Shown: piece after piece, positions 8,420 through 26,975 of the stretch | Layout: each line of letters begins with the position of its first letter | How positions within the stretch are numbered: the stretch's first letter is position 1 | Source: a bacterium | GTDB taxonomy: Bacteria > Patescibacteriota > Minisyncoccia > JAHIHE01 | Reading direction: 5' to 3' | Length of the DNA stretch: 64,000 nt | NCBI GenBank assembly: GCA_030693205.1 | Contig: JAUYBG010000010.1 | Span: forward strand, 2,059-66,058 | The notes under the pieces: generated by a model | Database searches by the model: none | Seen by the model: only the letters and a program-made list of their open reading frames with translations | What the model was told of the DNA's origin: nothing | Made by a program: the position numbers and the translations under genes

Positions 8420-8460
8420 TTTAAAAACAAGAGATTTAAAATTTCAATTTAAACAAAATC

Positions 8461-8748: not shown

Positions 8749-8771
8749 TTTATAAATAAGACAATAGAAAT

Positions 8772-9140: not shown

Positions 9141-9162
9141 TAAATTATATCCGAATAAAAAT

Positions 9163-9471
9163 ATGAAGATCAAAAAGAATGACAACGTATTGGTGATAAA
9201 AGGAAAAGACAGGAACAAGACCGGTAAGGTTGTTGGAATTTTGCCTGAAAAAGGAAAAGCTGTCGTCGGCGGATTGAATATGATCAAGCGCCACCAGAAG
9301 CCGAAAAGAAGCGGACAAAAAGGCCAGATTTTAAGCGTTGAAGCTCCTATAAGGATCGAGAATCTTATGGTGATCTGCCCGAAATGCGGCAAGCCGGCCA
9401 GAGTAGGATACAAGAAGCTGGAAAACGGAGAAAAAGTCAGGATTTGCAAAAAATGTAATCAAGAAATTTAA
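9163..9471 (+). CDS. rplX: 50S ribosomal protein L24 with a C-terminal CxxC...CxxC zinc ribbon
   Basis: KOW-like N-terminus KIKKNDNVLVIKGKDRNKTGKV, and a C-terminal CPKCG...CKKC. Confidence 0.93.
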   Translation: MKIKKNDNVLVIKGKDRNKTGKVVGILPEKGKAVVGGLNMIKRHQKPKRSGQKGQILSVEAPIRIENLMVICPKCGKPARVGYKKLENGEKVRICKKCNQEI

Positions 9472-9497
9472 AATAAACCAGTTATCAGTTTAAATAT

Positions 9498-10040
9498 ATG
9501 TCAAGATTAAAAGAAAAATTTATAAAAGAAGTCATCCCGGCTATGAAAAAAGAGTTCGGTTATAAGAACGACATGGCTGTGCCGCGCATGAAAAAAGCGG
9601 TTATTAACGCCGGAGTAGGCAAGTCTTTAGATAATAAGAAGCTTTTGGATCAGATAGTGTTTGATATCGCCGCGATCACCGGACAGAAGCCCGTGTTGAA
9701 GCTGGCCAAAAAATCAATTTCGAGTTTTAAGATCAGAGAAGGAATTCCTGTTGGCGTGGCAGTGACGCTCAGAGGCGAAAAAATGTATGAATTTATCGAC
9801 AAGCTTATCAATATCGCTTTGCCCCGGGTTCGTGATTTTCGCGGATTGCCGGACAATTCTTTTGATGGACGAGGCAATTTTTCCTTGGGAATTCGCGAGC
9901 ATTATGTTTTTCCTGAAATTAACGCCGATGTGACCTCGAGTATTTTTGGATTGCAAGTGACGGTAGTGACCGACGCGAAAAGCGACAAAGAAGCAAAGAG
10001 TTTATTAATTCATTTGGGTTTTCCCATTAAAAAAGAGTAA
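9498..10040 (+). CDS. rplE: 50S ribosomal protein L5
   Basis: [24 protein letters not shown] start and synteny. Confidence 0.95.
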
Positions 10041-10048
10041 AAAATATT

Positions 10049-10234
10049 ATGCCAAGAAAAGCCTTAGTTGTAAAAGCATTAAAAAAACCTAAGTATATGA
10101 CCCGCACGATCAGGCGCTGCTGGAAATGCGGACGCAAGCGCGCTTTTATGCGAGATTTTGGACTTTGCAGGATTTGCTTCAGGGAAATGGCTTCGATCGG
10201 AGAGATACCTGGCGTAAAAAAATCTTCGTGGTAA
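10049..10234 (+). CDS. rpsZ: 30S ribosomal protein S14 type Z (zinc-binding)
   Basis: 61 aa with a [20 protein letters not shown] zinc ribbon. Confidence 0.93.
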
Positions 10235-10276
10235 TTTAAATATTAAGAGAATCAAATTTACATTTAATTATATATT

Positions 10277-10669
10277 ATGACAGATCCAATAGCCGATTTA
10301 TTAACAAGAATTAGAAACGCTCAACGCGCCGGTAAAGAAAAAACCGTAATTGAGCCCGCCTCCAACATAAAACTGGATATTTTAAAGATATTCAAAAAGG
10401 AAGGGTATTTGGAGAAAATCGGCGTAAAGAGCGTTGACAATAAATCTTTTGTTGAGGTTGGCTTGAAATATGTAAACAATAAGCCCGCTTTTTCCGGCGT
10501 GGTGCGAGTGAGCCGGCCCGGGCAAAGAGTTTATGTCAAGAAAGACAAGGTGCCGTATGTGCTTCAGGGATTCGGATTGGCGATCATTTCCACCTCCAAA
10601 GGATTGATGACTGACAAAGAAGCGCGAAAACAAGGACTGGGCGGAGAATTAATTTGTAAAATTTGGTAA
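10277..10669 (+). CDS. rpsH: 30S ribosomal protein S8
   Basis: MTDPIADLLTRIRNAQ start. Confidence 0.95.
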   Translation: MTDPIADLLTRIRNAQRAGKEKTVIEPASNIKLDILKIFKKEGYLEKIGVKSVDNKSFVEVGLKYVNNKPAFSGVVRVSRPGQRVYVKKDKVPYVLQGFGLAIISTSKGLMTDKEARKQGLGGELICKIW

Positions 10670-10687
10670 AAATCTAATTAAAATATT

Positions 10688-11236
10688 ATGTCTAAAATCG
10701 GTAAAAAACCAATTATTATTCCGGATGGCGTCACGGTAAAAGTGACCGGCAAGGAAGTTCACGTAAAGGGTTCGAAAGGCGAGCTGTCTTTGATAGTTGA
10801 TGGCGCTATTAATATTGAAATGAAAGACAAAGAGATGGTTCTTTCCATCGGAGAAAGCACTAAAGAAAATAAATCAATTTGGGGAACTACCAGAATGCTG
10901 ATCGCCAATATGATAAAGGGTGTCACGGAAGGTTTTGAAAAACGCCTCGAGATCCAGGGAATTGGTTTTAAAGCGGCTTTGCAAGGCAAGAACAAGGTAA
11001 TTTTGAGTGTCGGATTTACGCACCCGGTGGAATTTACCGCGCCGGAAGGCGTGGAATTCAAACTTGAAAAGAATTTCATCATAGTTTCCGGCATTGATAA
11101 GCAAAAAGTCGGGCAGATCACGGCGGAGATAAGAGCTTCCAAGCCGCCTGAACCGTATTTGGGAAAAGGGATTCGCTATGTCGGCGAGGTTGTAAAGAGA
11201 AAAGCGGGAAAGAAAGTCGTATCAGCAGCGAAGTAA
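10688..11236 (+). CDS. rplF: 50S ribosomal protein L6
   Basis: [17 protein letters not shown] start with the two-domain L6 pattern. Confidence 0.94.
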
Positions 11237-11270
11237 AATTAAAATTAAAAATTTAGAATTATTTAAGAAT

Positions 11271-11669
11271 ATGTCAAAAGAAAATGTAAGTTTTAAAAAA
11301 TTGAAGAAAGACGCCCGCCATTTGAAAATAAGGGCAAAAATCAAAGGAACAGCCGAAGTTCCGAGATTGGCCGTGTTCAGAAGCAATGCTCATATTTACG
11401 CGCAATTGATCGATGACGAGAGCGGCAAGACTTTATTGAGCGTTTCGGACAAAGAAATAAAAACAGCTCGAGCTAAATCTTCCGGCAAGGACGATAAGGG
11501 TGAAAACGGCAGAAGGATCGCTGTCGCCAAGCAGGTGGGTTTATTGGCGGCCGAGAAAGCAAAAAAGGCCAAGATCGAGAAAGTTGTTTTCGACAGAGGC
11601 GGATTTAAATATCATGGAAGGATAAAATCAATTGCCGAAGGCGCCAGAGAAGGCGGAATGAAGTTCTAG
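11271..11669 (+). CDS. rplR: 50S ribosomal protein L18
   Basis: [18 protein letters not shown] core. Confidence 0.92.
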
Positions 11670-11736
11670 ACGGTAATTTATCAAGTTGGATAAAGTAAAA
11701 TTTTATAAAAAAGTATTATTCATAAAAATTTCAAGA

Positions 11737-11800
11737 ATTATGATTTATGATTAAAGATTTAAGAATAATTCGTAAATCATAAATCTTAAATCGTAAATCA
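11737..11800. repeat. GATTTA/TAAATC inverted-repeat hairpin element, copy 1 of 5, in the rplR-rpsE spacer
   Basis: tgatttatgattaaagatttaag...cgtaaatcataaatcttaaatcgtaaatc. The arms are reverse complements (gatttatgattta / taaatcataaatc). Confidence 0.6.
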
Positions 11801-11806
11801 AACAAT

Positions 11807-12352
11807 ATGGTTTTTAGAGACAAAAGAGAAAAAAGCGAATATGATCAAAAACTTCTGGAAGCTAGCCGCGTGGCTCGCGTGGTTAAAGGCGGAAAGCGCT
11901 TCAGTTTCAGGGCTTTGGTGATCATCGGAAACCGGAAAGGAAAAGTTGCAGTCGGAGTCGCTAAAGGCGCTGATCTTACCGATGCTACCCAGAAATCCGT
12001 GACCAATGCCAAAAAATCGATCATTGTCGTGCCGATTACGAATGGCAGCATTCCTCATGAAGTTTATCAGAAATATGGAGCAAGTATGGTTTTGATAAAA
12101 CCGGCTCCCAAAGGAAGCGGTATTATTGCCGGCGGAGCGGTTCGCACGATTTTGGAATTAGCCGGAGTGGCAAATGCTTCCGGTAAAATACTCGGCTCTA
12201 CTAATAAGCTGAATTGCGCGCGAGCGACAATAATCGCATTGGGAAAATTTAAGTCCAATACTCGCCCTGTCAATATGCAAGCCAAGAAAATCGCGGAAGC
12301 GCCGGCAAAAGAGGCAAAAGGCGTAACGGAAGAAAAAGCTAAAAGCAAATAA
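11807..12352 (+). CDS. rpsE: 30S ribosomal protein S5
   Basis: RVARVVKGGKRFSFRALVIIGN...GAGVIAGG pattern. It is followed directly by rplO, so there is no L30 gene. Confidence 0.94.
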   Translation: MVFRDKREKSEYDQKLLEASRVARVVKGGKRFSFRALVIIGNRKGKVAVGVAKGADLTDATQKSVTNAKKSIIVVPITNGSIPHEVYQKYGASMVLIKPAPKGSGIIAGGAVRTILELAGVANASGKILGSTNKLNCARATIIALGKFKSNTRPVNMQAKKIAEAPAKEAKGVTEEKAKSK

Positions 12353-12398
12353 TAAATAATATTATAGTTAAATTTTTGAGAAAGATAAGTTAAACTTT

Positions 12399-12821
12399 AT
12401 GCAAATTCACGAACTTACATTAAGCAAAAAAAGAAAAAGAGGGCAAAGAGTCGGCCGAGGCGGCAAGCGCGGCATTTATTCAGGCCGCGGCAATAAAGGC
12501 CAAAAAGCCCGAACAAATCACCGATTGAAATTAAAGAGGATCGGCTCCGGTTTGGCGCGCCATGTGCCGAAATTAGGCGGGTTTGTCAGTCTTAGCCCCC
12601 GATCAACCGCAGTTGATATTAAGAGATTAGAGGAAAAATTTTCCAACGGCGAATTGGTCACTCCTGTTTCGCTGAAAGCCAAGGGGATCATTAAGTCCAT
12701 TAAAAACCCCGTGAAAATCGTCGGAAATACCACACTTACTAAAAAATTTACAGTTAAAGATTGTCTGACAACCGTTTCTTCTAAAAAAAGCATAGAAAAA
12801 GCCGGGGGAATAATAAAATAA
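12399..12821 (+). CDS. rplO: 50S ribosomal protein L15
   Basis: MQIHELTLSKKRKRGQRVGRGGKRG start. Confidence 0.94.
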   Translation: MQIHELTLSKKRKRGQRVGRGGKRGIYSGRGNKGQKARTNHRLKLKRIGSGLARHVPKLGGFVSLSPRSTAVDIKRLEEKFSNGELVTPVSLKAKGIIKSIKNPVKIVGNTTLTKKFTVKDCLTTVSSKKSIEKAGGIIK

Positions 12822-14305: not shown

Positions 14306-14977
14306 ATGTCTCCATTTGTTATTACTATTATCGGTCCTCCGGGTTCGGGCAAGGGCACGCAAGGAAAAGTCGTTGCTCAAAAATATAATTTAAATCACAT
14401 CGGTGTTGGAGATCTCGTAAGACAGTTGATCGTTCTTGATACGCCGCTAGGCAAAAAAGCAAAAGATAATTATGATAAAGGAGTTCCCCAGCCGGATGAA
14501 ATTATTATTCAGGCTGTTAAGGAAAAAATAGAAAAAATGTCCGCGAGTCAGCGGAAAAAAGGTTTTCTTTTTGATACCTTTTTGTCTTTTAATCAGGCGA
14601 AAGCGTTCGATGAAGTTTTAAAAAATTATGATTTGCCGGGAAGTTTAGCTATTTATTTGAATATTAGCGCCGATACTGTCATTGAAAGAACCGAGAAACG
14701 GCTCATTTGTTCAAAATGCGGCGCTGTTTTTTTGTCCAAAGATCCGGCTTATAATACTGGGAAGTGTGACAAGTGCGGCGGGGATCTGATGGTCCGAAGC
14801 GATGATAAGCCCGAAGTGGTGCGTCGAAGGATTGAAGAATATAAATCAAGAATGCTGGATCTGAAAAAATATTATCAGGACAGAAAAAGGCTGATCGTCA
14901 TTAATGGCGAGCCTGCAATTGAGGAAATTCACAAGGATATTATTAAAAAGATAAATGAATTTCACAAAACCAAATAA
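14306..14977 (+). CDS. adk: Adenylate kinase with a Zn-lid type LID domain
   Basis: GPPGSGKGTQ P-loop, CSKCG...CDKCGG lid and RRRIEEY. Confidence 0.9.
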   Translation: MSPFVITIIGPPGSGKGTQGKVVAQKYNLNHIGVGDLVRQLIVLDTPLGKKAKDNYDKGVPQPDEIIIQAVKEKIEKMSASQRKKGFLFDTFLSFNQAKAFDEVLKNYDLPGSLAIYLNISADTVIERTEKRLICSKCGAVFLSKDPAYNTGKCDKCGGDLMVRSDDKPEVVRRRIEEYKSRMLDLKKYYQDRKRLIVINGEPAIEEIHKDIIKKINEFHKTK

Positions 14978-15623
14978 TTTGATCATTTTAGGCCCTTCCG
15001 GCTCGGGCAAGGGAACTCAAGCTGAACTTTTAGCGCGGAAATTTGATCTGAAAATGGTGGATGGCGGAGAATATTTAAGAAGCATTCTGGCCTCAAAAAG
15101 CGGTGCTTTTAAAAAATTGGCGGAAAAAATGAACAAAGGCAATCTGGCTCCTACTGATATAATCAGAGATTGGATAAAGAAGCAGGTTTTCGGAAAACCT
15201 ATCAGCCGCGGATTGATCTTTAGCGGACAGCCCAGGATGATCGGCGAGGCAAAACTGACATTGAAATGGTTTCGGGAAAGCAAGCGGGGAGTGCCAGTAG
15301 TGATCTTTTTAAAAGTTTCAGCGCGAGAAGTGCTGAAGCGTCTGGCAAAAAGATATATTTGCGAAAAATGCAAAAAAGTATATACTTTAAATGAATTTCC
15401 CAAGAAGCCTTGCGGAGCTTGCGGAGGAAAAATTATCAAGCGCGCCGACGATACGCCGAAATTGATACGGAACAGATTGGCATATTTTCGCGAACAGGTG
15501 GCGAAAACTTTGGAATTTTTTAAGAAAAAAGGAATTTTGATCGAGATAAACGGCGAGCAAGGAGTAGCTTTAGTAAATCGGGAAATACTAAAGAAAATTA
15601 GCGATCATTTCCGTCGTAATTAA
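14955..15623 (+). CDS. Second adenylate-kinase-family paralogue with a Zn lid, overlapping adk by 23 nt
   Basis: GPSGSGKGTQ P-loop, CEKCKKVY...CGACGG lid, and RADDTPKLIRNRLAYF. Confidence 0.85.
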   Translation: MNFTKPNNLIILGPSGSGKGTQAELLARKFDLKMVDGGEYLRSILASKSGAFKKLAEKMNKGNLAPTDIIRDWIKKQVFGKPISRGLIFSGQPRMIGEAKLTLKWFRESKRGVPVVIFLKVSAREVLKRLAKRYICEKCKKVYTLNEFPKKPCGACGGKIIKRADDTPKLIRNRLAYFREQVAKTLEFFKKKGILIEINGEQGVALVNREILKKISDHFRRN

Positions 15624-15717: not shown

Positions 15718-16491
15718 GTGATTTATATCAAAACTCCCCAAGAGATCGCTTTGATCCGTGAAGGCGGGAAAATCCTCGCGCAAATATTGGAGGATCTGGG
15801 TCAGTCGGTAAAGCCGGGAATGAAAACAATTGAACTGGATAGGCTTGCTGAAAGCCTTGTTTTTAAATATGGCGCGGCGGCGGCTTTTAAAAATTATAAG
15901 CCCGATTTTAATCATGACGGCCAGGGTGGTTTTCCGGCGAGCGTTTGCGTGTCGGTGAATGAAGAAGTGGTGCATGGAATTCCGGGAGAACGGGTGTTGC
16001 AGGAAGGCGATATCGTGAGTTTGGATATGGGAGTTTTGTACAAAGGTTATTTTACGGATGCGGCGATCACGGTTGGCGTGGGAAAAATTTCGCCAGAGGC
16101 CCAGAAATTAATCGCGGTGACAAAAAGATCCCTGGAGCTAGCGATTGAGAAAACCAAGATTGGCAATCATTTGGGCGATATCGGTTTCGCGGTGCAATCT
16201 TACGCGGAAAAAAACGGTTTTTCAATAGTGCGGGATCTGGTGGGGCATGGAGTGGGAAAATTTATCCACGAAGAGCCGGAGATCCCTAATTTTGGCAAGC
16301 CGGGCACGGGGTTAGAAATAAAAGAGGGAATGGTTTTGGCTTTTGAGCCGATGGTAAATGTTGGCGGTTATAAAGTTAAAACTCTGGTTGATGGCTGGAC
16401 TTATACGACTTGCGATAAAAGTCTTTCGGCGCATTTCGAGCATACGGTGGCGGTGACGAAAAACGAAGCGGAAGTGCTGACGAGGCTATAA
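15718..16491 (+). CDS. map: Methionine aminopeptidase type I
   Basis: GTG start, metal-ligand context FTDAAITVGVG...HGVGKFIHEEP...FEPMVN. Confidence 0.93.
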   Translation: MIYIKTPQEIALIREGGKILAQILEDLGQSVKPGMKTIELDRLAESLVFKYGAAAAFKNYKPDFNHDGQGGFPASVCVSVNEEVVHGIPGERVLQEGDIVSLDMGVLYKGYFTDAAITVGVGKISPEAQKLIAVTKRSLELAIEKTKIGNHLGDIGFAVQSYAEKNGFSIVRDLVGHGVGKFIHEEPEIPNFGKPGTGLEIKEGMVLAFEPMVNVGGYKVKTLVDGWTYTTCDKSLSAHFEHTVAVTKNEAEVLTRL

Positions 16492-16544
16492 TTTATTGAC
16501 AAAAAACGCAACAATAGTTAAGCTATGGCTAGGAGGAATGATGA

Positions 16545-16922
16545 ATGGCTGAAAATAATGGGAATTCGGAAAGGTGTTTAGGGCCGATACCCCACACTGA
16601 AAATATTGAAAAATTAAATTCAGCAATTGTCGCGCTTAACGGATGCCGCGGTAAAAAGCTTAAAAACGCGCTTGCCAAGGTCGAGGGATTCAGCGATATT
16701 CGTGTCGCCAAAGATATTGTCGTGTACGGTATCAAGTATTGGCGAACGATTTCTTTTCTAAAAAAAGAAGGAGATTGCGTAAATATTTCGATTCCCTACG
16801 ATAATGGTTCCGGCTTGGAAAGGCCGATCGCTATTTTCAAAGACAGTATCGTCGGCATTGATACTGTTGAAGCGCTTGTCGGAAGAATTTCCGAAGAATT
16901 AACCAAAGAAAATCAAATTTAA
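16545..16922 (+). CDS. Hypothetical protein (125 aa)
   Basis: ORF with reasonable codon usage. No known motif. It lies where infA, rpmJ and rpsM would normally follow map. Confidence 0.55.
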   Translation: MAENNGNSERCLGPIPHTENIEKLNSAIVALNGCRGKKLKNALAKVEGFSDIRVAKDIVVYGIKYWRTISFLKKEGDCVNISIPYDNGSGLERPIAIFKDSIVGIDTVEALVGRISEELTKENQI

Positions 16923-17018
16923 GGGCATAAACCGCCCTTTATTTTTTTGCATTGACTTTTAGCCAAGTTATGTTTAGTATGTATTTAATCGATTGCTCTT
17001 TAAAGCAAGGAGGAAGAA

Positions 17019-17732
17019 ATGAAAAGAATATGCTTAAAGGTAAAAAGTCTGCGGTTAGTTTCCCTTAAAAGCGATTTAGGGGAAGAAAAAACAGTACGGG
17101 CGACGCTAGAACTTGGTAATGCGCTTAATATCGCGGGCGTTCAAGCCGGATACGAAAAGGAAGGCGGATCATTCCATCAAAACTTGTCTATGGCATCGCT
17201 AAGATTGATGGACACCCCCTTTCTACACAGAAAAGAGAAAGAGAAAAACACGCCGTTGCATTTGCTTGAAGAGATCATATGCGAAGCAATTTGGTTTTTC
17301 TTCAAACAAAACGAGGTGCGAATGCGCGATCTATTGGGACAGAAATTAGACGATTTCGATCTCGAAGAGTTTTTTCCGGAATGGAATGATCGCGAATTGG
17401 CAATACCGGTTGAGTTTATCAAGCTGAGTAAGTTTGATTGCCGCCACCAAAACGGAGACGTAAGCGCTGACATTCAGCTCGGGCATCACTTTATCGTTTG
17501 GGGTGTAAAAATATATGACGGAAGGGGCGTTTTTGAACTTTTTGATGAAAACATCAGAAGCAGGGAATTAAGGAAAGTCATCCGTGAAATGATAAAAAGG
17601 AATGCGGAATTGCAAGAGCACGTCAAATATCTTTCCAAGCACGGAATTAGCGATATGGGCGAAGAAGTATTTATTGACAAAACCGAAGGGTGCGATCCCA
17701 AAAGCTTGCCGCCGCCAGTAAGCTTTTGTTGA
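17019..17732 (+). CDS. Hypothetical protein (237 aa)
   Basis: ORF preceded by a GGAGGA SD and its own promoter-like TTGACT..TAGTAT. A terminator lies downstream. Confidence 0.55.
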   Translation: MKRICLKVKSLRLVSLKSDLGEEKTVRATLELGNALNIAGVQAGYEKEGGSFHQNLSMASLRLMDTPFLHRKEKEKNTPLHLLEEIICEAIWFFFKQNEVRMRDLLGQKLDDFDLEEFFPEWNDRELAIPVEFIKLSKFDCRHQNGDVSADIQLGHHFIVWGVKIYDGRGVFELFDENIRSRELRKVIREMIKRNAELQEHVKYLSKHGISDMGEEVFIDKTEGCDPKSLPPPVSFC

Positions 17733-17747
17733 AGAATTAAAATATAA

Positions 17748-17790
17748 AACCAGTTGAGCCTCAAACTCGCTGGTTATTTTTTTGTTTTTT
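17748..17790 (+). terminator. Rho-independent terminator
   Basis: AACCAG ttgagcctcaaactcg CTGGTT followed by a T-run. Confidence 0.6.
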
Positions 17791-17845
17791 TATTCTTGAT
17801 TTAATGCCAAAAATGGCATAGAATCAATTAAAGTAATAGAATTTT

Positions 17846-18049
17846 ATGATTCCTTATCAGACAAAAATTAAAAAACTTCCCGGCACAAGTTATAACGAAC
17901 CAAGTGCAAGGGAAAATCCAAATAAAAGGAATGAGACCTTTTATCGTTTTGCCGGTTTAACCAAAGATAAGGAAATATTTTACGCGCAAGTCAAGGAAGA
18001 TAAAAAGAACGGCAGAAAATATTTTATGTCTTGTTTCTCGCCCGAATAA
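17846..18049 (+). CDS. Small hypothetical ORF (67 aa)
   Basis: ORF only. A promoter-like extended -10 lies upstream. Confidence 0.25.
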   Translation: MIPYQTKIKKLPGTSYNEPSARENPNKRNETFYRFAGLTKDKEIFYAQVKEDKKNGRKYFMSCFSPE

Positions 18050-18187
18050 CCGTAATAAAAAAATCCCCCGCCCATGTGGAGTGTATAAACTCCTGGCCGA
18101 GGATCCTATAGTTAATATACTACTGACTAGGTACCTTGTCAATGGCTTGATAGCTTTCTGTGGATAAAATGCATCTTTTATAGCCCT

Positions 18188-18213
18188 GCCCGCCCTTTGG
18201 CGGGCTTGCTTTT
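18188..18213 (+). terminator. GC-rich hairpin terminator
   Basis: GCCCGCC cttt GGCGGGC followed by ttgctttt. Confidence 0.5.
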
Positions 18214-18396
18214 AGCTTAAAAAGGGCATAGAATTAATTAAAGTGAATTAAAGGATTTTGGGGGTGAGAATTTGGGGTAAATATGCATAAAAGGAGGATA
18301 AAAGCCTCTTTTTTGTATCTTTTACTCTTGCGTAAAATTTATTTTAATATACAATTACTGTAAGCGTAAATCAATAAAACAGCCTGTTCTAAAAAT

Positions 18397-18687
18397 ATGA
18401 GTTTTATAGAAATTAATATAAATAATTCTTTTAATAAAAAAGAAAATCACGAAGTGGGAAAAAGTAGTATTCCTAATAAGTTTCCGATTCTAAATCAAAA
18501 TTTTAACAAAGTGAATACTGAAACTAATTCTCTGAGTGCAGTTTCTGTTACAAACAGTGCTTCGAGCGAATTAGTTAATAATTGGTTGAAGGGTATAAAA
18601 CCATCTATTATGAGAGATGTGCTTGTTGGAGCTACCAGTGCCACAATAGGTGCGATTATTACTTATTTAATTTTAGGTATCAAATAA
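18397..18687 (+). CDS. Hypothetical tail-anchored membrane protein (96 aa), AT-rich
   Basis: C-terminal hydrophobic helix VLVGATSATIGAIITYLILGI. The region is about 28% GC. Confidence 0.45.
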   Translation: MSFIEININNSFNKKENHEVGKSSIPNKFPILNQNFNKVNTETNSLSAVSVTNSASSELVNNWLKGIKPSIMRDVLVGATSATIGAIITYLILGIK

Positions 18688-18695
18688 TTAAAAGT

Positions 18696-19388
18696 ATGAA
18701 AAAAGAAATTAAAAAAATTCAAACAGCTATTTTTTATAAAAATTTCCAACTGGGAAATACCTACGATAAATCAAAAATTCTTCTAGAATTGAGAGAAAAA
18801 GTTGGAAGTATATTTGACGGCGAACCAATAATGTTTCCTATACCATTTGGTACGCCACCAGAAATTCCGAGAATTATTTTAAATAGTAAAGATGGAATTT
18901 ATTCATGCCATGTAGCGTTAGATAGAACCTATGTTTTTTATAACGCAACCGAAAATTTAGAAAACATAGATAGAGTATTAAGTAAACAAAAGGATAATTC
19001 TTTAAAATTATTTGATTTTTTAAAATCTAAAAATTCTATTATAAATAGGGTTGGTTTTATAATAGAATTTGAAATTACGATAGATGATGAAAATGGATCT
19101 GAATATTTAAAGAAAGAATTTTTTTTAGATAGTAAATTTACAGATCCAAAAGAGTTAACATTTAGATATAATAAAGCGGATAAAACTAAAGGTGAGACAG
19201 GAATGAATAATTTAATTACAGTTTTAGGAAAAGCTGATAGAGTGGTAAAAGTACAGTTAGATATTAATAGTATTGCTGAAACAATGGATAACTCTGATTT
19301 TACAAAAGAAAATTTTACGGAAATTATTGATTATGCAATTATTAAAATCCCACCAATATTAGAAAAATTTCCAATTTTTGAATTATAA
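18696..19388 (+). CDS. Hypothetical protein (231 aa; start moved to MKKEIKK)
   Basis: The ORF-track start at 18582 overlaps the previous gene. An ATG at 18696 sits immediately after the upstream stop. Confidence 0.5.
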   Translation: MKKEIKKIQTAIFYKNFQLGNTYDKSKILLELREKVGSIFDGEPIMFPIPFGTPPEIPRIILNSKDGIYSCHVALDRTYVFYNATENLENIDRVLSKQKDNSLKLFDFLKSKNSIINRVGFIIEFEITIDDENGSEYLKKEFFLDSKFTDPKELTFRYNKADKTKGETGMNNLITVLGKADRVVKVQLDINSIAETMDNSDFTKENFTEIIDYAIIKIPPILEKFPIFEL

Positions 19389-19393
19389 ATTTT

Positions 19394-19921
19394 ATGTCTA
19401 GGAATAATAAAAATAAACTTAAGCAAATTAAATCGGTTGAGACTGCGCAGGAAAATTTAGGTTCTTCTGCCGAAACACCAAAATCAGAAATGACTACTGT
19501 ATTAGAATTAGCCTCATCGGTAAATAAACACGAAGAGAGAATTAAAAACTTGGAAAAGGATATAAATAATCCAGAATGGGTACAAAAATTAGTTCATTCA
19601 CAATTATCCCAATCTCATATTATAAAGTTTATATTAATTATTTTTTTGATAATTTTATTATTCTCAACTCTTCTTTTTTATATTTTAATAATTTTTAAAA
19701 TAAATAATTTGATTACCATTTTTGAGTATATTAAAAATGATAAAGTTTTAAATATTGATAGTAAATTAATGGATAGTTTTAATCAATTATTTTATGAAAC
19801 AAAGATAACGGTTAATTTTATTGCTTACATTTTAGGAGGTATTACGACTGTTGGTATTTTGGGAATATTATTAAAAAAATTATTAGAAAAATTTATTGAA
19901 AATCTATCTATTAAAAAGTAA
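19394..19921 (+). CDS. Hypothetical membrane protein (175 aa)
   Basis: Two hydrophobic segments. AT-rich. Confidence 0.5.
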   Translation: MSRNNKNKLKQIKSVETAQENLGSSAETPKSEMTTVLELASSVNKHEERIKNLEKDINNPEWVQKLVHSQLSQSHIIKFILIIFLIILLFSTLLFYILIIFKINNLITIFEYIKNDKVLNIDSKLMDSFNQLFYETKITVNFIAYILGGITTVGILGILLKKLLEKFIENLSIKK

Positions 19922-19942
19922 TAATTAAATAAAACAATTTTT

Positions 19943-20086
19943 ATGCAAACACAAAATCTAATCAAGCAAATTGAAAAAGCAAGAAATTCAAAGGTAATTA
20001 CTTATATCACTAGCGATAGGCAGGGTCCGATTCAAACGCCTCAAGAGCAAGTAATGTGGCGGGTGGTCGGGCAGGGGTGGAAATAA
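19943..20086 (+). pseudogene. Degenerate N+C-terminal remnant (47 codons) of the S49-like protease gene found at 25950..26975
   Basis: The first roughly 28 codons (MQTQNLIKQIEKARNSKVITYITSDRQG) and last roughly 19 codons (PIQTPQEQVMWRVVGQGWK) match the ends of the 341-aa ORF at 25950. By eye, nucleotide identity is about 92% and 82% respectively. Confidence 0.75.
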
Positions 20087-20109
20087 TTCGCGCATAAATA
20101 AATATCACC

Positions 20110-21153
20110 ATGAATCGCCAAAAATCAGAACTTTATTTTTTACTTATTCTCCTTGCGGGAATCTTTATCCTCGCCTTTTTTATTTTCAGTCCTTTTCTCT
20201 ATGCGTTGATCTTGGCAATTGTTTTTGCAATTGTTTTTGAATCACTGCATAAAAAATTACTTACTATGACGCGAGATAGAAAGAGCTTGTCGGCGTTTCT
20301 CGCTACTATCTCTGTTTTTACCGTTGTTGTTGCGCCTCTCGCGCTTTTAGGCATACAGATTTTTCAGGAAGCAACCGGGCTTTACTTTTCTCTCATTGAG
20401 AATGGCGGCGCAACCGATCTTTCTCGCATCGTGAATGACGCCATACAGAACCTTAAAAGATTTTCTCCTGTGCCGATAGAATTTTCCGTTGATGTTAATC
20501 AATATTTAAAGCAGGGATTAAGCTGGCTGCTCCAGCATCTTGGTCCGCTCTTTGCGAATATTGCTAAAGTAATGGTGGGCGTTTTTATATTTCTCATCGC
20601 TCTTTATTACTTGTTTAAAGATGGCTGCAAACTGAAAAGAGCTATCATCGCTTTAAGTCCTTTGCAAGACATTCACGATGAAGCGATTTTTAATAAACTT
20701 GCCTTGGTAATTAATTCCGTCGTCAAAGGGAGTCTCACGGTGGCGCTCGTTCAAGGCATACTGACCGCAGTCGGGTTTGCTATTTTCGGAGTTCCCAATG
20801 CGATTCTATGGGGCAGTGTTGCGGCAATAGCCGCGTTAATGCCCGGCATTGGAACATCGCTGGTGATCCTACCGGCTATTCTCTACTTATACTTTAGCGG
20901 AGAGACGCTTTTTGCGGCCGGTCTTTTTATTTGGGGAATGACAGCGGTGGGGCTTATTGATAATTTTTTAGGTCCTAAGCTGATTGGGCGCGGCACGCAT
21001 TCGCACCCCTTAATTATTTTCCTCTCGGTCATTGGCGGCATTGGATTTTTTGGACCCATTGGTCTCTTGCTGGGACCTCTCACTATAAGCCTGCTTTTTG
21101 CCCTTTTGGATATTTATTCCTCTTTGACAAGGAAAGAAAAATCTATAATGTGA
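20110..21153 (+). CDS. AI-2E family (UPF0118, PerM/YhhT-like) transporter
   Basis: 347 aa with 7-8 TM segments in the characteristic AI-2E arrangement (GSLTVALVQGILTAVGF...PLIIFLSVIGG). Confidence 0.75.
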   Translation: MNRQKSELYFLLILLAGIFILAFFIFSPFLYALILAIVFAIVFESLHKKLLTMTRDRKSLSAFLATISVFTVVVAPLALLGIQIFQEATGLYFSLIENGGATDLSRIVNDAIQNLKRFSPVPIEFSVDVNQYLKQGLSWLLQHLGPLFANIAKVMVGVFIFLIALYYLFKDGCKLKRAIIALSPLQDIHDEAIFNKLALVINSVVKGSLTVALVQGILTAVGFAIFGVPNAILWGSVAAIAALMPGIGTSLVILPAILYLYFSGETLFAAGLFIWGMTAVGLIDNFLGPKLIGRGTHSHPLIIFLSVIGGIGFFGPIGLLLGPLTISLLFALLDIYSSLTRKEKSIM

Positions 21154-21457
21154 ATCTACGATTAAAAAATATGCTTCCCGACAAACAAAGTAAAATTAAA
21201 AGAGTAATCTTTATCAGCATTATTATTTTGCTTCTTCTGTCACTTGTTTTGCCTTTAGCGGTTGGTTATTAAAAATAAGGATGAAAGCTGGAGAGGAAAA
21301 CCGCCGGCGTAATTTTTATTGATTTATTAAAGAAACATTGCTATAATTGGCAGCGAGAGAGAAATGGAAAAAGCTACTGCTTTTACATTTCGAACGAGCG
21401 AACCAATTATATTGTATTCAGTTATATAATTGCTCTATAATTATTTAATATTAACCT

Positions 21458-24193
21458 ATGAATATTTCAAAATACCTTATGCAGTTCTCCTTTGTCGGGA
21501 TTTTTGCCACCTTTATCCTTTTCTCAAGCATTATCGCCTTAGTTACTGATTGGTGGTGGTTTTCTGAAGTGAGCCATACGCAAATTTTTATTAAATCTCT
21601 AACCGCTAAAATAGCGCTGTTTTCGGCAGCGGGGATTTTTACCGCCATTTTTTTGCTTGCCAACTTCTCTTTGGCGCTTCGCTCGAAAATTTCTTGGACA
21701 GCAATGTTGCCGGAGTCGTTGATCGGCCAGCCGGTGAATGTGGATAATCGCATTGTTAAAAGATCAGCCGTTATTTTTAGTTTGGCAATCGCGTTCTTTT
21801 TCGGACTGGTAGCCGCGGCTAATTGGCAGGATGTTTTAAAATTTATTTCCGGCGCGGCTTTTGGCTCGTCAGACCCCATCTTTAATAAAGACATCGGATT
21901 TTATATTTTTTCTCTTCCGGTCTTTCAGACGGGGTTAGGCCTAATAAAATTTCTCGTTTTGTTATCGCTCGCCGGCTGCGCGATCATATATTTTTTGCGG
22001 GGCAGCCTTAATGTTGCAAATTTGCGATTACTTAAGCAATTGCAAATTGAACGCGGGGCTAGAATCCATCTTGGCATCTTGCTTGTAATTTTTCTCGGAA
22101 CCATTGCCGCCGGTGTCTATCTTTCCCGCTTCGAACTGCTCACAAGCCAAAGCGGCTTAGTTTTTGGCGCGATGTATACAGACACAACCGTGAGAATATT
22201 TATGCTTTGGATTTCAATAACTGCGGTGGCGCTTGCGGCAGTTTCGGCCGCCTTTTGGGCATGGAAAGGAAATTTGTCGCTGCTTGTCGGAGCAGTTTCT
22301 TTGTATGTTGTCGTAGGATTCGCCGGAGCGATAATTCCGTCTCTTGTTCAAAAACTGGCAGTTGCTCCCAATGAGCTCGTGAAAGAAACGCCGTTTATTA
22401 AGCATAATATCGCCGCTACCCGTCAGGGGTTTGCGCTTGATAAAATAGAGGAGCGGGAAATCTCGGGAGATAAACCCATCACCGCGGCTGATATCGCGAA
22501 CAATAATCTCACGGTCAAAAATGTGCGGCTTTGGGATAGAAAACCCCTTCTGTCAACTTTTTCCCAGATACAAGAAATCAGAACCTATTACGAGTTTGCC
22601 GAAGTTGATAATGATCGTTATATCATAGACGGAGAAATTCGCCAGATCATGCTTTCTCCGCGCGAGCTCGCTTCAGCCAGTCTGCCGAATAGAAATTGGA
22701 TTAACGAACGGCTCACCTTTACGCATGGATATGGCGTGGCGGCCGGACCGGTGAACCAAGTTACCCCAGAAGGCTTGCCGGTTTTGTTTGTTAAGGACTT
22801 GCCGCCCAAGTCGGATGTGAAAGAGCTTGAAATTACGCGTCCGGAAATCTACTTCGGCGAGCTTTCAAACGATTATGTCATTACCAAAACAAAATCCCGC
22901 GAGTTTGATTATCCCAAGGGCGAAGAAAATGTCTACGCGACATATGAGGGCAAGGGCGGGGTGGAGATAAACTCGTTTTTAAGGCGTGTCTTTTACGCAG
23001 TGAAATTCCAGTCGCTTAAACTGCTTTTGTCCAACGACATAACCAGCGAAAGCCGTATTTTGTATTACCGCACTATTGCCGAGAGGGTTGCCAAAATCGC
23101 CCCGTTTTTAGTATTTGATAGAGACCCCTATATTGTCATTGCCGACGGCAAGGTGTATTGGATCGTCGACGCCTATACCACGAGTGACCGTTATCCTTAC
23201 TCGGAACCTATACGGTTAAATGGCGGAAAGATAAACTATATCAGAAACTCGGTAAAGGCGGTGGTTGACGCGTATAATGGCAGTGTTGTTTTCTATCAGG
23301 CGGATGCAGAGGATCCGATTATAAAAACATATGCCAATATTTTCCCCGGAACATTCAAACCAATGTCAGAAATGCCGGAGAGCTTGGTTTCTCATTTGCG
23401 TTACCCCGAAGATATTTTTACTCTGCAGACTGCCGCGTATTCGGTCTATCACATGGATGATCCGCAGATTTTTTACAACAAGGAAGATCAGTGGGAGATT
23501 CCGGCCATTGCGGCAGAAGGAGAAGGGGCGTCACGCGCAGGTGGAATTCCGCCGATGCAACCGAGGCATATTATCATGAAGTTGCCCGGAGATAAAAAAG
23601 AAGAATATGTTTTGATGTTGCCTTTTACTCCACGGGCAAAAGACAATTTGTCTGCATGGATAGTCGCTAGGAACGACGGAGAAAGCTACGGTAAATTGTT
23701 AGTCTATCGTTTTCCTAAGGACAAGCTCGTGTTCGGACCCAAACAGATCATAGGCCGAATTAATCAAGACTCCGAGATTAGCCAGCAGATCTCGCTTTGG
23801 AGCCAAGGCGGGTCGCAAGTAATCCAAGGTCCGCTTTTGGTCATCCCGATTGAAGAATCGCTTTTGTATGTGCGCCCGCTCTATCTCAAGGCTGAAGCCG
23901 GAAAAATTCCGGAGTTAAAACGAGTGGTGGTGGCGTATGAAAATAAAATTGCCATGGAAGAAACGCTGGAAGAAGGATTAGTGAAAATCTTTGGCAGCGG
24001 AGCGGGAGTACGACCACAGGGAACCGCGACAGCAAAACCATCCGCTTCAAGCAGAATACCATCTCAAGATATTCAGGAGCGCATACAAAGAGCATTGGGA
24101 ACATATGAAGAGGCGCTTCGAGCGCAAAGGGATGGCGATTGGGCGCGCTATGGCGAAGCCATCAGACGATTGGGAGATATTCTTAAGCAATAA
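21458..24193 (+). CDS. UPF0182-family large membrane protein (911 aa)
   Basis: N-terminal multi-TM region with a TDWWWFSEV motif and a large C-terminal soluble region. Size and architecture are typical of UPF0182. Confidence 0.6.
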   Translation: MNISKYLMQFSFVGIFATFILFSSIIALVTDWWWFSEVSHTQIFIKSLTAKIALFSAAGIFTAIFLLANFSLALRSKISWTAMLPESLIGQPVNVDNRIVKRSAVIFSLAIAFFFGLVAAANWQDVLKFISGAAFGSSDPIFNKDIGFYIFSLPVFQTGLGLIKFLVLLSLAGCAIIYFLRGSLNVANLRLLKQLQIERGARIHLGILLVIFLGTIAAGVYLSRFELLTSQSGLVFGAMYTDTTVRIFMLWISITAVALAAVSAAFWAWKGNLSLLVGAVSLYVVVGFAGAIIPSLVQKLAVAPNELVKETPFIKHNIAATRQGFALDKIEEREISGDKPITAADIANNNLTVKNVRLWDRKPLLSTFSQIQEIRTYYEFAEVDNDRYIIDGEIRQIMLSPRELASASLPNRNWINERLTFTHGYGVAAGPVNQVTPEGLPVLFVKDLPPKSDVKELEITRPEIYFGELSNDYVITKTKSREFDYPKGEENVYATYEGKGGVEINSFLRRVFYAVKFQSLKLLLSNDITSESRILYYRTIAERVAKIAPFLVFDRDPYIVIADGKVYWIVDAYTTSDRYPYSEPIRLNGGKINYIRNSVKAVVDAYNGSVVFYQADAEDPIIKTYANIFPGTFKPMSEMPESLVSHLRYPEDIFTLQTAAYSVYHMDDPQIFYNKEDQWEIPAIAAEGEGASRAGGIPPMQPRHIIMKLPGDKKEEYVLMLPFTPRAKDNLSAWIVARNDGESYGKLLVYRFPKDKLVFGPKQIIGRINQDSEISQQISLWSQGGSQVIQGPLLVIPIEESLLYVRPLYLKAEAGKIPELKRVVVAYENKIAMEETLEEGLVKIFGSGAGVRPQGTATAKPSASSRIPSQDIQERIQRALGTYEEALRAQRDGDWARYGEAIRRLGDILKQ

Positions 24194-24255
24194 AAGATTA
24201 TTAAGCCAAAAATGATAAACTAAAGTTATAGGTAATCCAAAAAGAGGGAATTATT

Positions 24256-25722
24256 ATGATTATGCCAAACCTTAAGCAATTACTTAAAACGCTTAATCTA
24301 AAGCAACAAGCTTATGTAAATTTGAATTTGCCCGATTCTAAAAATGGAGAATATCTTCTTGCCGCTTTTCATTTAGTATCCGGGGGAAAGTTAAACATTC
24401 TGCAGGCGGCGGCGGAAATTGCCGCAGAATCTTCCACCGGCACAACTTTCAAAGTAAACACGGAAACTTCCTTTTCCAGAGAAATGAACGCGCTCGTTTA
24501 TCAGCTTGATCTAAAAAGAAACCTTGTTTGGGTTGCCTATCCCTGGAGACTTTTTGACAGAAGAGGAAATGTGCAGAATATCTTAACCTATATTGCTGGA
24601 AATATTCTTGGAATGAAAGAAGTGAGCGCTTTAAAATTATTAGATGTCTGGTTCCCTCCGGCAATGCTTGAACAGTATGATGGTCCAAGCTATACTCTTG
24701 ATGATATGCGAAAATATTTGAATGTCTATGGCAGGCCGATTTTAGGAACAATCATAAAACCCAAAATGGGATTAACCTCGGCGGAATACGCGGAAGCCGC
24801 TTATGATTTTTGGTCCGGTGGCGGAGATTTTGTCAAGAACGATGAGCCTCAGGCGGACCAGGACTTCTGTCCATACGATAAAATGGTAAAGCATGTAAAG
24901 GAAGCGATGGACAAAGCCGTCAAAGAAACCGGAAGGAAAAAAGTCCATTCGTTTAATGTTTCGGCGGCTGATTTTGACACAATGATCAAAAGGTGCGAGA
25001 TGATTAGAAATGCCGGTTTTGAACCGGGAAGTTACGCGTTTTTAATTGATGGCATTACGGCGGGATGGATGGCAGTACAGACATTAAGAAGAAGATATCC
25101 CGATGTATTCATTCATTTTCACCGGGCGGGACACGGCGGTTATACCAGACCGGAAAACCCAATAGGATTTACAGTATTGGTTTTATCTAAATTTGCAAGA
25201 TTGGCGGGAGCTTCAGGAATTCACACAGGAACAGCCGGCGTGGGAAAAATGAAAGGAAGTCCGGAAGAAGATGTTGTTGCCGCGCGCAATATTTTGCGTT
25301 TTAAAAGCAAAGGGCATTTCTTTGAACAAGAATGGGCGACAATACCCGAAACGGACAAAGATGCCATAAATCTTGTTCATAAAGATATTGCTCACAGGGT
25401 TATTTTAGAAGATGATAGCTGGAGAGGCATGAAGAAATGTTGCCCGATTATTTCCGGGGGTTTAGATCCGACATTGCTAAAGCCGTTTATTGATGTGATG
25501 GGAAATATAGATTTTATTACAACAATGGGCGCGGGATGCCACGCGCATCCAAAAGGAACCGCTGCCGGAGCAAAAGCATTAGTTCAAGCGTGCGAGGCCT
25601 ATAAAAAAGGGATTGATATTAAAAAATATGCCAAAAAACACAAGGAACTGGCAGAAGCTATAAGGTTTTTCTCAAAGGGGAGAGAAGAAATAAAACAAGC
25701 AAGGAATACGGAAAGGAGTTAG
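24256..25722 (+). CDS. rbcL: RuBisCO large-subunit-like protein, form II/III type
   Basis: IIKPKMGLT (catalytic Lys region), GGGDFVKNDE, IHFHRAGHG and GTAGVGKMKG motifs. Confidence 0.88.
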   Translation: MIMPNLKQLLKTLNLKQQAYVNLNLPDSKNGEYLLAAFHLVSGGKLNILQAAAEIAAESSTGTTFKVNTETSFSREMNALVYQLDLKRNLVWVAYPWRLFDRRGNVQNILTYIAGNILGMKEVSALKLLDVWFPPAMLEQYDGPSYTLDDMRKYLNVYGRPILGTIIKPKMGLTSAEYAEAAYDFWSGGGDFVKNDEPQADQDFCPYDKMVKHVKEAMDKAVKETGRKKVHSFNVSAADFDTMIKRCEMIRNAGFEPGSYAFLIDGITAGWMAVQTLRRRYPDVFIHFHRAGHGGYTRPENPIGFTVLVLSKFARLAGASGIHTGTAGVGKMKGSPEEDVVAARNILRFKSKGHFFEQEWATIPETDKDAINLVHKDIAHRVILEDDSWRGMKKCCPIISGGLDPTLLKPFIDVMGNIDFITTMGAGCHAHPKGTAAGAKALVQACEAYKKGIDIKKYAKKHKELAEAIRFFSKGREEIKQARNTERS

Positions 25723-25949
25723 TTTGGCAGTTATCCTTCTTCGGCCGATTATATCAAAAGTACCCTCCTAATTTTATAAAAAAATCGTGAAATGCCATCA
25801 GATTTGGCATGGATTATTTACAAATCCAAATACTGCATTATTTAGATTACATTCGTTAGAAGTTTTACCACCTACACTTCTGAGAACAGAAGAAATATTA
25901 AAAAAATAGAACAAAAAAAAATTTTAAAATTAATTCAAAAACAATTCTT

Positions 25950-26975
25950 ATGCAAACACAAAACCTAATCAAGCAAATTGAGAAATCAAGAAATTCAAAA
26001 GTAATTACTTATATCACTAGTGACAGGCAGGGGCCGGTGAATGCCCGGATTGCCATGGATATAATTCCGATTGTCAGCGCGCAATTACGGAAGATCGGAC
26101 GAGTGCCGAAGATAGATCTATTTTTATACAGCTCCGGCGGAGATACGATGGTGCCGTGGCGATTGGTTTCAATGATCCGCGAATATTGCGATACTTTTAG
26201 CGTTTTAATTCCTTATAAATCCCATAGCGCCGCGACAATGATCTCGCTCGGAGCGGATGAAATTGTAATGACGGATCTGGCGGAGCTCTCACCGATTGAT
26301 CCTTCGACAGCCAATGTTTTTAATCCTACTGATCCGGCGAACCCGCAAAGCAAAATTCCCATTTCCGTGGAAGACGTGATGGCATATTTTGACCTCGCGA
26401 AAAGCAAGTTTGGCATCAAAAGCGATGCGGAACTGGCAAAAATATTCAATAAATTCGTGGAAGCCAATCCGCAAATTCATCCTCTCGCGCTTGGCAATGT
26501 CAACCGCATTCATAACTTGATCCGGATGCTGGCCAAAAGTTTATTGAAAAGCCACAAGAAAAGAATGACCGATAATGAGATTGCCACGATCGTGGATTAT
26601 TTCACGGAGAAACTTTATTCCCATCAATATTTTATCGGCCGGCGCGAAGCGAAAGATGACTTGGGTTTGAAAAATGTCGTTAATGCCGACAGCGATCTCG
26701 CGAAATTGATGTCGGAACTTTACGAAGAATACAAAAAAGAAATGGGTTTGGGCGCGAACTGGAACGCCGAAGCGGAGCTGGGCGATGGCAGGGCGATAAA
26801 TACTAAAACCTATAAACTGGCTTGCATTGAAAATACCGATGAATCGAATTATTTTGAGCTTATTTTGGAATACCGGAAAGGCCAGGTAAATATTGTCCAG
26901 CAAACTCCGCAAGGCCCGATCCAAGTGCCGCAAGAGCAGGTGATGTGGCGAGTAGTAGGGCAAGGGTGGAAATAA
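25950..26975 (+). CDS. S49 / SDH-family (ClpP-fold) serine-peptidase-like protein
   Basis: LYSSGGDTMVPWRLVSMIREY...SHSAATMISLGADEIVMTDLAELSPIDP matches the SppA/SDH Ser-protease core. Confidence 0.65.
   Translation: MQTQNLIKQIEKSRNSKVITYITSDRQGPVNARIAMDIIPIVSAQLRKIGRVPKIDLFLYSSGGDTMVPWRLVSMIREYCDTFSVLIPYKSHSAATMISLGADEIVMTDLAELSPIDPSTANVFNPTDPANPQSKIPISVEDVMAYFDLAKSKFGIKSDAELAKIFNKFVEANPQIHPLALGNVNRIHNLIRMLAKSLLKSHKKRMTDNEIATIVDYFTEKLYSHQYFIGRREAKDDLGLKNVVNADSDLAKLMSELYEEYKKEMGLGANWNAEAELGDGRAINTKTYKLACIENTDESNYFELILEYRKGQVNIVQQTPQGPIQVPQEQVMWRVVGQGWK

Follow-up and report, generated by a model that had tools for sequence, protein, structure and literature searches.

The region downstream of map

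Within a window of 64,000 nucleotides (the whole stretch of DNA analysed; contig JAUYBG010000010.1 of assembly GCA_030693205.1) of a Patescibacteria (candidate phyla radiation, CPR) genome, a gene run consisting of tuf, the S10-spc ribosomal genes, secY, two tandem adenylate kinase genes (adk) and map (15718..16491) is followed by six open reading frames (ORF1 to ORF6) on the + strand, with a further ORF of 47 amino acids, ORF7 (19943..20086), in the same block, and, further downstream, by the intact gene of an SDH-type ClpP-like serine protease. The initial annotation of this DNA had considered the six genes as one horizontally acquired island of defence, toxin or phage-derived character, which interrupts the ribosomal superoperon. 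The analysis presented here suggests instead, with a probability of roughly 60%, that the region is a mosaic and begins where the S10-spc-secY-adk-map operon naturally ends. In this mosaic, which is composed of at least four segments differing in history, 16495-17783 probably harbours two independent resident genes, while the DNA from 17795 to the protease gene probably constitutes a slot for exchangeable cassettes.

The six ORFs after map are real, and equally the absence of an assigned function has been confirmed, as ORF1 to ORF7 have no match in Pfam, NCBIfam or PADLOC (PADLOC-DB v2). PHROG matches were obtained only to families of unknown function, with ORF5 to phrog_24110 (1e-5) the sole family-library match among the six ORFs. 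Products identical to window ORFs are on record as the hypothetical proteins Q8N37_01945, Q8N37_01950 and Q8N37_01965, and the homology database contains proteins identical to ORF2 and ORF5, although an exact look-up listed neither of the two. The best-matching genome locus belongs to a metagenome-assembled genome labelled 'Patescibacteria group bacterium', with a Map protein 85% identical; the closest relative is designated L001, with corresponding designations (L038, L040, L068 and so on) for other loci and contigs.

The ribosomal operon ends at map in Patescibacteria

A total of 37 loci retrieved with the Map protein were compared for the genes downstream of map. In all 13 non-CPR loci with downstream sequence, infA and the genes for S13 and S11 (rpsM, rpsK) are located directly 3' of map, whereas none of the three follows map in any of the 16 Patescibacteria-labelled loci, each with 3-10 kb of downstream sequence. 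The same queries can detect infA of CPR bacteria, which was found in L040. Furthermore, none of infA, rpmJ, rpsM, rpsK, rpsD, rpoA and rplQ is present downstream within the window. The operon terminates at map in Patescibacteria and the region therefore interrupts nothing; as the superoperon does not resume in the window, the region is equally not an insertion into the operon. The proposed interruption of a conserved ribosomal gene order is thereby contradicted, and the tempting assumption that genes after map are insertions is corrected for this phylum.

The tandem adk genes upstream of map (14306..14977 and 14955..15623) overlap by 23 nt; L068 and L069 have kept this arrangement, and L001 too has the second copy. 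On the Moranbacteria contig L040, a cluster at 4386..12690 with the order SDH protease gene, 157-aa gene, ORF5-like gene, ORF6-like gene and type III modification and restriction genes (Mod, Res) is located immediately upstream of infA-rpmJ-rpsM-rpsK-rpsD, the other broken end of the superoperon.

Composition of the region

The 59 other genes of the window have a mean GC content of 41.6% (standard deviation 4.4). Against this background, the AT-rich block of three genes is not only real, but more extreme than the approximately 28% GC noted before, with 24.4% GC over 18320-19930. ORF4, ORF5 and ORF6 have 28.9, 24.8 and 22.3% GC, respectively, which corresponds to z scores of -2.9 to -4.4, with 13-21% GC at third codon positions (GC3). 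In such DNA, with a stop chance of about 0.10 per codon, open frames of 230 codons (ORF5) and 175 codons (ORF6) would arise with a probability of about 4e-11 and 1e-8, respectively; the two frames are therefore not accidents. The atypical composition does not extend to the other ORFs of the region. ORF1 (40.7% GC, z -0.2), ORF2 (42.9%, z +0.3) and ORF7 (41.7%) are ordinary, and ORF3 with 34.8% GC is slightly low, but not compositionally odd. As ORF1, ORF2 and ORF3 are compositionally normal, there is no single six-gene island. A second AT-rich islet in the window, an ORF of 197 aa at 51316..51909 (25% GC, GC3 19%), adjoins a 277-aa gene at 51930..52763.

ORF1 and ORF2 as resident genes

The first two genes after map are accompanied by the following features.

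16496..16524, + strand: promoter of ORF1, TTGACA-17 nt-TAAGCT (from the sequence and the alignment of the window, L038, L068 and L069)
16531-16536, + strand: AGGAGG (Shine-Dalgarno sequence) of ORF1, conserved together with the promoter in the same four genomes
16545..16922, + strand: ORF1, 125 aa, a lineage-restricted resident gene
16921..16948, + strand: terminator-like hairpin and T run after ORF1, with an equivalent hairpin after ORF1 in L068
16952..16980, + strand: promoter-like site before ORF2, TTGACT-17 nt-TAGTAT, within the 87%-identical unit common with L074
17019..17732, + strand: ORF2, 237 aa, an uncharacterised family with an internal two-fold repeat
17749..17792, + strand: hairpin and T run after ORF2, which closes the ORF1-ORF2 unit

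The promoter-like and terminator-like signals ascribed to the genes at 16545 and 17019 are thus present, and ORF1 and ORF2 are lineage genes, each with its own promoter and terminator. The promoter scan overall performed no better than chance, with 17 sites found versus 16.3 expected from shuffled sequences; firmer support for the ORF1 promoter comes from its conservation together with AGGAGG in four genomes.

The ORF1 family has five members among 5.8 billion proteins. In L068 the gene order is L15-secY-adk-adk-map-ORF1 homologue-SDH protease and in L069 adk-adk-map-ORF1 homologue, while in L038 and L074 ORF1 and ORF2 occur together behind a different gene and with normal GC content, ORF1 of L038 being 81% identical. 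The DNA common with L074 (16495-17783; 87% nucleotide identity) extends from 3 nt past the map stop codon to the ORF2 terminator and is exactly the segment absent from L001. ORF1 occurs without ORF2 in L068, and ORF2 without ORF1 in L039 and L070-L073; the two are therefore separate genes, consistent with their own signals. ORF1, with 55-66% identity where Map has 85-89%, evolves faster than Map and has no relative in the PDB. BLAST matches between ORF1 and the SDH protease (E 0.002-0.23 in a tiny database) were judged as chance. Equally, the N-terminal extension of P0036, a 362-aa relative of ORF2, is not ORF1 and therefore provides no evidence for a fusion of the two.

The ORF2 family comprises about 80 clusters at 50% identity, with a member in a core-like context in L070-L073 and a Pfam match in none of 62 members. 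Aligned with hhalign, one half of ORF2 proves related to the other (probability 79%, E 1.6e-5), and the protein may be a tandem repeat of a beta-rich module that resembles SpoVG (PF04026). Residues 6-78 of SpoVG can be aligned to the C-terminal half, where the strand pattern and a ...GHH.IVW.VKIYDG... stretch agree; the same module is repeated in the N-terminal half. The scores are weak (E 0.66 to PDB entry 2ia9; hhalign probability 22-42%), and ORF2 differs from SpoVG by twice the length and a conserved Cys/Pro-rich C-terminal tail; the likeness is a lead only.

These findings bear directly on the proposal of one acquired six-gene island in the ribosomal superoperon. The proposal draws on the real AT-rich block, on the lack of any gene of known function and on the absence of both ORF1-ORF2 and ORF5-ORF6 from the closest relative L001. 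However, ORF1 and ORF2 have normal GC content and recur beside map or beside each other in L038, L068, L069 and L074, map closes the operon in each of the 16 Patescibacteria loci, and the region is composed of segments of different history. A phage derivation is equally not borne out, as no relatives were detected among IMG/VR viral contigs and GenBank phage records, and neither integrase or transposase domains nor att-like repeats were found in the region, where the P* copies and SDH fragments described below are the only repeats of note. Plasmid records gave no match apart from one chance match. A tRNA scan and Rfam searches at gathering thresholds and at E up to 5 gave no tRNA or RNA family within or beside the region, which therefore offers no tRNA-type integration site. 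A single island is thus largely refuted and must be regarded as very improbable. With respect to ORF1 and ORF2 in particular, the presence of the same genes in relatives with normal composition (ORF1 after map in L068 and L069, the unit in L038 and L074) is an observation that, by the terms of the initial annotation itself, refutes the proposal.

A variable slot between a promoter and a protease gene

Downstream of the ORF1-ORF2 unit, the DNA is organised around a repeated promoter, P*, and the SDH protease gene.

17795..17834, + strand: P* copy 1 (CTTGATTT..GCATAGAATCAATTAAAGT), from repeat and alignment analysis
17846..18049, + strand: ORF3, 67 aa, derived from a 136-aa gene (L001) by the loss of 207 bp in frame
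18050..18142, - strand: conserved non-coding element, putative RNA gene (about 55 nt) in convergent orientation to ORF3
18205..18244, + strand: P* copy 2, from repeat and alignment analysis
18245..18396, + strand: leader, common to L038 (after P*) and L001 (ahead of its ORF4 homologue)
18397..18687, + strand: ORF4, 96 aa, with a C-terminal transmembrane helix (residues 74-95), shared only with L001 (68% identity)
18696..19388, + strand: ORF5, 230 aa, cytoplasmic, from the ATG start (the mechanical ORF starts at 18582)
19394..19921, + strand: ORF6, 175 aa, with a charged N-terminal part and two transmembrane segments (about 69-111 and 138-164)
19915..20086, + strand: SDH protease remnant including ORF7 (19943..20086, 47 aa), from similarity to the intact copy
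20110..25722, + strand: genes for an AI-2E family transporter, a UPF0182 protein and a RuBisCO large-subunit-like protein
25950..26975, + strand: SDH-type ClpP-like serine protease, 341 aa, intact, the anchor of the hotspot

P* has the 40-nt pattern CTTG[AC]TTT..GCATAGAAT.AATTAA, of which the core (CTTGnTT ... ATAGAAT.AATTA) is invariant in seven copies from five genomes, the copies outside the window being located at 2225-2264 and 3033-3072 in L001, 3238-3277 in L038, 5179-5218 in L068 and 3354-3393 in L069. The element is always found on the protease side of ORF1/ORF2, and in the minimal relative L068 it is positioned 64 nt ahead of the start codon of the SDH protease.

The parent-type gene of ORF3 in L001 (136 aa, 1713..2123), of unknown family, follows directly after map. 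The non-coding element consists of a minus-strand promoter (TTGACA-17-TATATT, 11/12) followed by a long hairpin and a U run, with a predicted fold of -21.2 kcal/mol (z -4.15). It is present in the window and L001 only, where it is 94% identical over 89 nt and thus conserved better than the flanking genes; Rfam has no family for 18050..18142.

The SDH protease, with orthologues in L001 (9178..10203), L038 (4266..5291) and L068 (5283..6308), has been assigned to its family by Pfam PF01972 for the L001 orthologue and by NCBIfam NF047768 (5.7e-17, below the cut-off); it also matches phrog_11747 (1.8e-40), a family of unknown function. It is the best-conserved gene of the neighbourhood, with 91-93% identity in L001, L038 and L068 versus 85% for Map, for which an exceptionally strong constraint or gene conversion among lineages may be responsible. 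In distant CPR lineages which have homologues of ORF5 and ORF6, the protease is only 67-76% identical.

The remnant at 19915..20086, with an ORF that the initial annotation did not count, retains the two ends of an SDH gene: roughly 30 nt from ahead of the gene and its initial 87 nt are fused, at a microhomology of 10 nt (GCAGGGTCCG) that preserves the reading frame, to the final 57 nt. Its 5' 99 nt are 92% identical to 25938-26036 and its 3' 67 nt 82% identical to 26909-26975. The remnant and the intact SDH gene bracket the segment with the AI-2E, UPF0182 and RuBisCO-like genes (20087..25912), which is absent from this position in L001, L038 and L068. Likewise, L001 has a 5' fragment of the SDH gene, three cargo genes and then the intact SDH gene. 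Copies of the anchor gene on both sides of cargo would fit the single-crossover integration of a circle with an SDH homologue; loss through recombination between two copies is equally possible.

In the window and in L001, the anchors are arranged in the same order, namely map, the ORF3 gene, the non-coding element, ORF4, the SDH 5' fragment, SDH and the next gene, while the content between these anchors differs throughout. The L001 slot contains DUF3800 and NYN genes and then a set of genes for a 203-aa, a 95-aa and a PIN protein (23-33% GC), and after its SDH fragment follow a TIGR04255 gene (2.6e-41), a 158-aa gene and a HEPN-like gene, again with 23-33% GC. The slot of L038 is occupied by DUF6941 and a transmembrane protein, and L068, with map-ORF1-terminator-P*-64 nt-SDH, displays the empty state. 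ORF5 and ORF6 are absent from the site in all three relatives, while ORF1 is present in L068 and L069, and ORF3 and ORF4 in L001. The suggested comparison with related genomes has delimited one segment, 16495-17783, by its absence in L001, and gives a mixed result for the six genes as one unit. At each of its edges the AT-rich block continues into sequence that has the same order in L001, which makes an assembly chimera unlikely.

ORF5 and ORF6

ORF4, ORF5, ORF6 and the remnant are tightly packed, with gaps of 8, 5 and 21 nt. ORF5 has homologues in about 20 clusters (42-53% identity) among the 5.8 billion proteins, with a patchy distribution, and retains all 21 residues invariant in its family. 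The structure model (pLDDT 91.7, pTM 0.88) predicts a duplicated beta-alpha-beta3-alpha unit of TBP-like or AdoMetDC-like type. Foldseek against the PDB gave AdoMetDC and archaeal TBP as the best matches, at low TM-scores only, and BFVD one uncharacterised viral protein (TM-score 0.54-0.60); these searches would place ORF5 in a fold class rather than assign it a function.

In 12 of the 13 contigs with enough flanking sequence (L040-L044, L047-L052 and L054; the exception is L046), the SDH protease gene is located directly upstream of the ORF5 homologue, and in those contigs a gene for a transmembrane/coiled-coil protein follows directly downstream. ORF6 is homologous to the short form of this downstream gene (28% identity, E 5e-22 to the 170-aa protein of L040), with which it shares the motifs PEW..KL..SQLS and LNNL..ILEYI, and it is full-length. 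The succession of an ORF5-family gene and an ORF6-family gene with two transmembrane segments is thus realised in the window, with the gap of 5 nt, while ORF4 instead of an intact SDH gene is found directly upstream of ORF5.

The pair is further associated with restriction-modification (R-M) genes, by the overall count in eight of the 12 contigs. In L040, type III Mod (PADLOC MTase_III, 1e-191) and Res (REase_III, 3e-87) come next after the ORF6 homologue, and type III Mod/Res next to the pair have been detected by tblastn also in L041-L044, L048 and L049. L052 and L054 have ORFs with methyltransferase motifs (DPPY) together with unidentified neighbours, read by eye as type II R-M, and L047 and L050 possess the trio of SDH, ORF5 and transmembrane protein without R-M genes. 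As in the window, the pair is AT-rich in L040, with 29% versus 42-45% GC. Neither Mod nor Res is present in the window from 16492 to 20110.

Distant relatives of ORF5 without an SDH gene occupy the first position in sets of three genes, the last of which encodes a PIN (L056; Pfam 1.6e-5) or HEPN-like protein (L061, L065), and the L056 set is homologous to the 95-aa and PIN set of L001. From these modules of remote relatives it follows that ORF5-type genes keep company with effectors of a type common in conflict systems. A membership of ORF5 itself in TIGR04255 was considered and rejected, as there is no NCBIfam match at E up to 1 and hhalign to a true member gave a probability of 0.2%; equally, ORF5 and the 203-aa protein of L001 have no sequence relation, even with a widened profile. 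Neither the SDH protease nor the ORF5 and ORF6 homologues of L040 matched a PADLOC model, and a literature search on PF01972, the SDH family, TIGR04255 or an association of a protease with type III R-M yielded no pertinent report.

The best reading of 18320-19930 is accessory, exchanged DNA with a conflict-type role, because the pair is absent in L001, patchy in distribution and tied elsewhere to the protease gene and R-M. For this block, the horizontal acquisition put forward by the initial annotation is thus supported in a narrower form, and the block looks like a reduced version of a phage-defence or toxin-type module. ORF4 to ORF6 could otherwise be native, fast-evolving and lineage-specific genes for the envelope or membrane of a CPR cell with an episymbiotic life style, with low GC content caused by weak selection and an incidental adjacency to SDH and R-M genes. 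Two of the three are membrane proteins, there are neither matches to defence models nor mobility genes, ORF4 is also present in L001, and other small AT-rich genes such as 51316..51909 exist in the window. However, L001 has PIN, HEPN-like, TIGR04255, NYN and DUF3800 genes instead, ORF5-ORF6 are absent from L038 and L068, the rare homologues maintain a fixed partnership with the protease even in distant CPR lineages where SDH has diverged to 67-76% identity, and two types of R-M adjoin them, so that a native origin is considered unlikely.

A second alternative regards the block as the decayed remnant of an SDH-linked R-M island without present function, from which both R-M enzymes (methyltransferase and restriction enzyme) and the greater part of one protease copy have disappeared. 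Mod and Res, which follow ORF6 homologues in L040-L045, L048 and L049, are indeed missing, and two neighbours, ORF3 and the protease remnant, are products of in-frame deletions. Against such decay stand the full length of ORF5 and ORF6 with all family-invariant residues kept, the existence of the trio without R-M in L047 and L050, and the intact SDH gene at 25950; we regard it as less probable still than a native origin.

Outside the region, the match to 23S rRNA (36012..39605) exceeds the Rfam model (2925 nt) by about 670 nt and contains no ORF of at least 100 aa; the 23S rRNA therefore carries insertions. The 5S gene follows at 40307, and no 16S rRNA was found within the window.

Proposed mechanism and points against it

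The arrangement as an exchangeable cassette in a slot of conserved borders can be translated into a mechanism. P* is normally located 64 nt before the SDH protease gene, and each relative has different AT-rich genes lodged in between. Exchange would probably occur by homologous recombination through the conserved flanks, P* plus leader on one side and the protease gene on the other, and would leave behind duplicated and subsequently decaying copies such as the 47-codon remnant, the shortened ORF3 and the second P*. The AT-rich cassette of the window is ORF4-ORF5-ORF6 and includes both genes that usually accompany the SDH protease. ORF5 might act as a cytoplasmic sensor or regulator, the SDH protease as a switch and ORF6 as a membrane effector, and the module could serve as an abortive-infection-type back-up to restriction. 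In this genome the R-M genes would have been lost, with the only intact copy of the protease gene 6 kb downstream. We consider such a three-part conflict module of ORF5, protease and ORF6 as a tentative proposal, less likely right than wrong, with the defence or abortive-infection role suggested by gene neighbourhood alone. More speculative is the extended view that SDH, ORF5 and ORF6 represent an undescribed three-component anti-phage module of CPR bacteria which travels with R-M systems, combined with a protease gene and promoter that act as a recombination landing pad to swap cassettes between CPR lineages, such as the 5.8-kb RuBisCO segment. Anatomy, composition, synteny and gene associations as described above are direct results, while the mechanism of recombination and the role in defence are inferred.

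Several observations weigh against this interpretation. No gene of the block matches a PADLOC model, so that neighbourhood carries the argument for defence. The order in the window, ORF5-ORF6 and then the remnant, is reversed relative to the 12 other contigs, each of which has the protease gene in front, and could not be derived by one simple event. The lack of R-M genes could mean that the cassette is an inert relic. SDH is widespread and highly conserved, and the adjacency could reflect a preferred site of insertion instead of joint function. Neither an integrase, att repeats nor a donor has been identified. Furthermore, the comparison sequences are metagenome assemblies throughout, with about five of them in the close clade, and for ORF2 the SpoVG signal is weak (E 0.66; probability 22-42%) and the structure model from a six-sequence alignment (pLDDT 46) gave meaningless fold matches.

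Relation to known systems and significance

Prokaryotic immune genes cluster in defence islands and in hotspots between conserved core genes. The region resembles such hotspots in that a bounded fixed slot is filled, from relative to relative, with different small AT-rich genes of conflict type (PIN, HEPN-like, NYN, DUF3800 and TIGR04255, with R-M nearby). In contrast to these hotspots, the slot splits a transcription unit, as it separates a conserved promoter from the protease gene, has no integrase or mobile-element backbone and retains partial copies of the anchor gene. A variable defence-type hotspot is thus of a known kind, whereas the slot within a promoter-gene unit, the trio of protease, TBP-like and transmembrane proteins and the leftover anchor copies are not catalogued.

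Type III R-M loci with accessory genes are similar insofar as ORF5 and ORF6 are homologous to two genes between SDH and Mod-Res, but in the window Mod and Res are lacking, the genes are in the reverse order with respect to the protease, and of the adjacent protease gene a 47-codon remnant is left. Equally, three-gene toxin-antitoxin or abortive-infection-like modules with a PIN or HEPN end are headed by remote ORF5 relatives in L056, L061 and L065, with an equivalent 203-aa, 95-aa and PIN set in L001; in the window the last gene encodes a protein with two transmembrane segments, not a nuclease, and no antitoxin-type DNA-binding domain was found. Integron cassette arrays have in common with the region a resident promoter and, behind it, a variable series of closely spaced genes without promoters of their own, but here integrase and attC-like repeats are lacking and exchange seems to use long conserved flanks. 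TIGR04255 of the L001 slot is comparable to ORF5 in length, in its position as the first gene of a three-gene module in the same slot and in a mid-length R-(I/V)-G motif, while ORF5 has no NCBIfam match and an hhalign probability below 1%.

In CPR/Patescibacteria, few defence systems have been identified and only one phage has been described, and the Patescibacteria-only defence genes ldgA and ddgA without known homology have been reported (PMC12366544). The recurrent trio of protease, TBP-like and membrane protein beside R-M genes, outside of Pfam, NCBIfam and PADLOC models, provides a concrete and cheap candidate. Equally, a slot that reaches from a promoter to a conserved gene and retains leftover partial copies offers a testable picture of the exchange of accessory genes in tiny, integrase-poor genomes, an exchange that may extend to metabolic genes such as RuBisCO.

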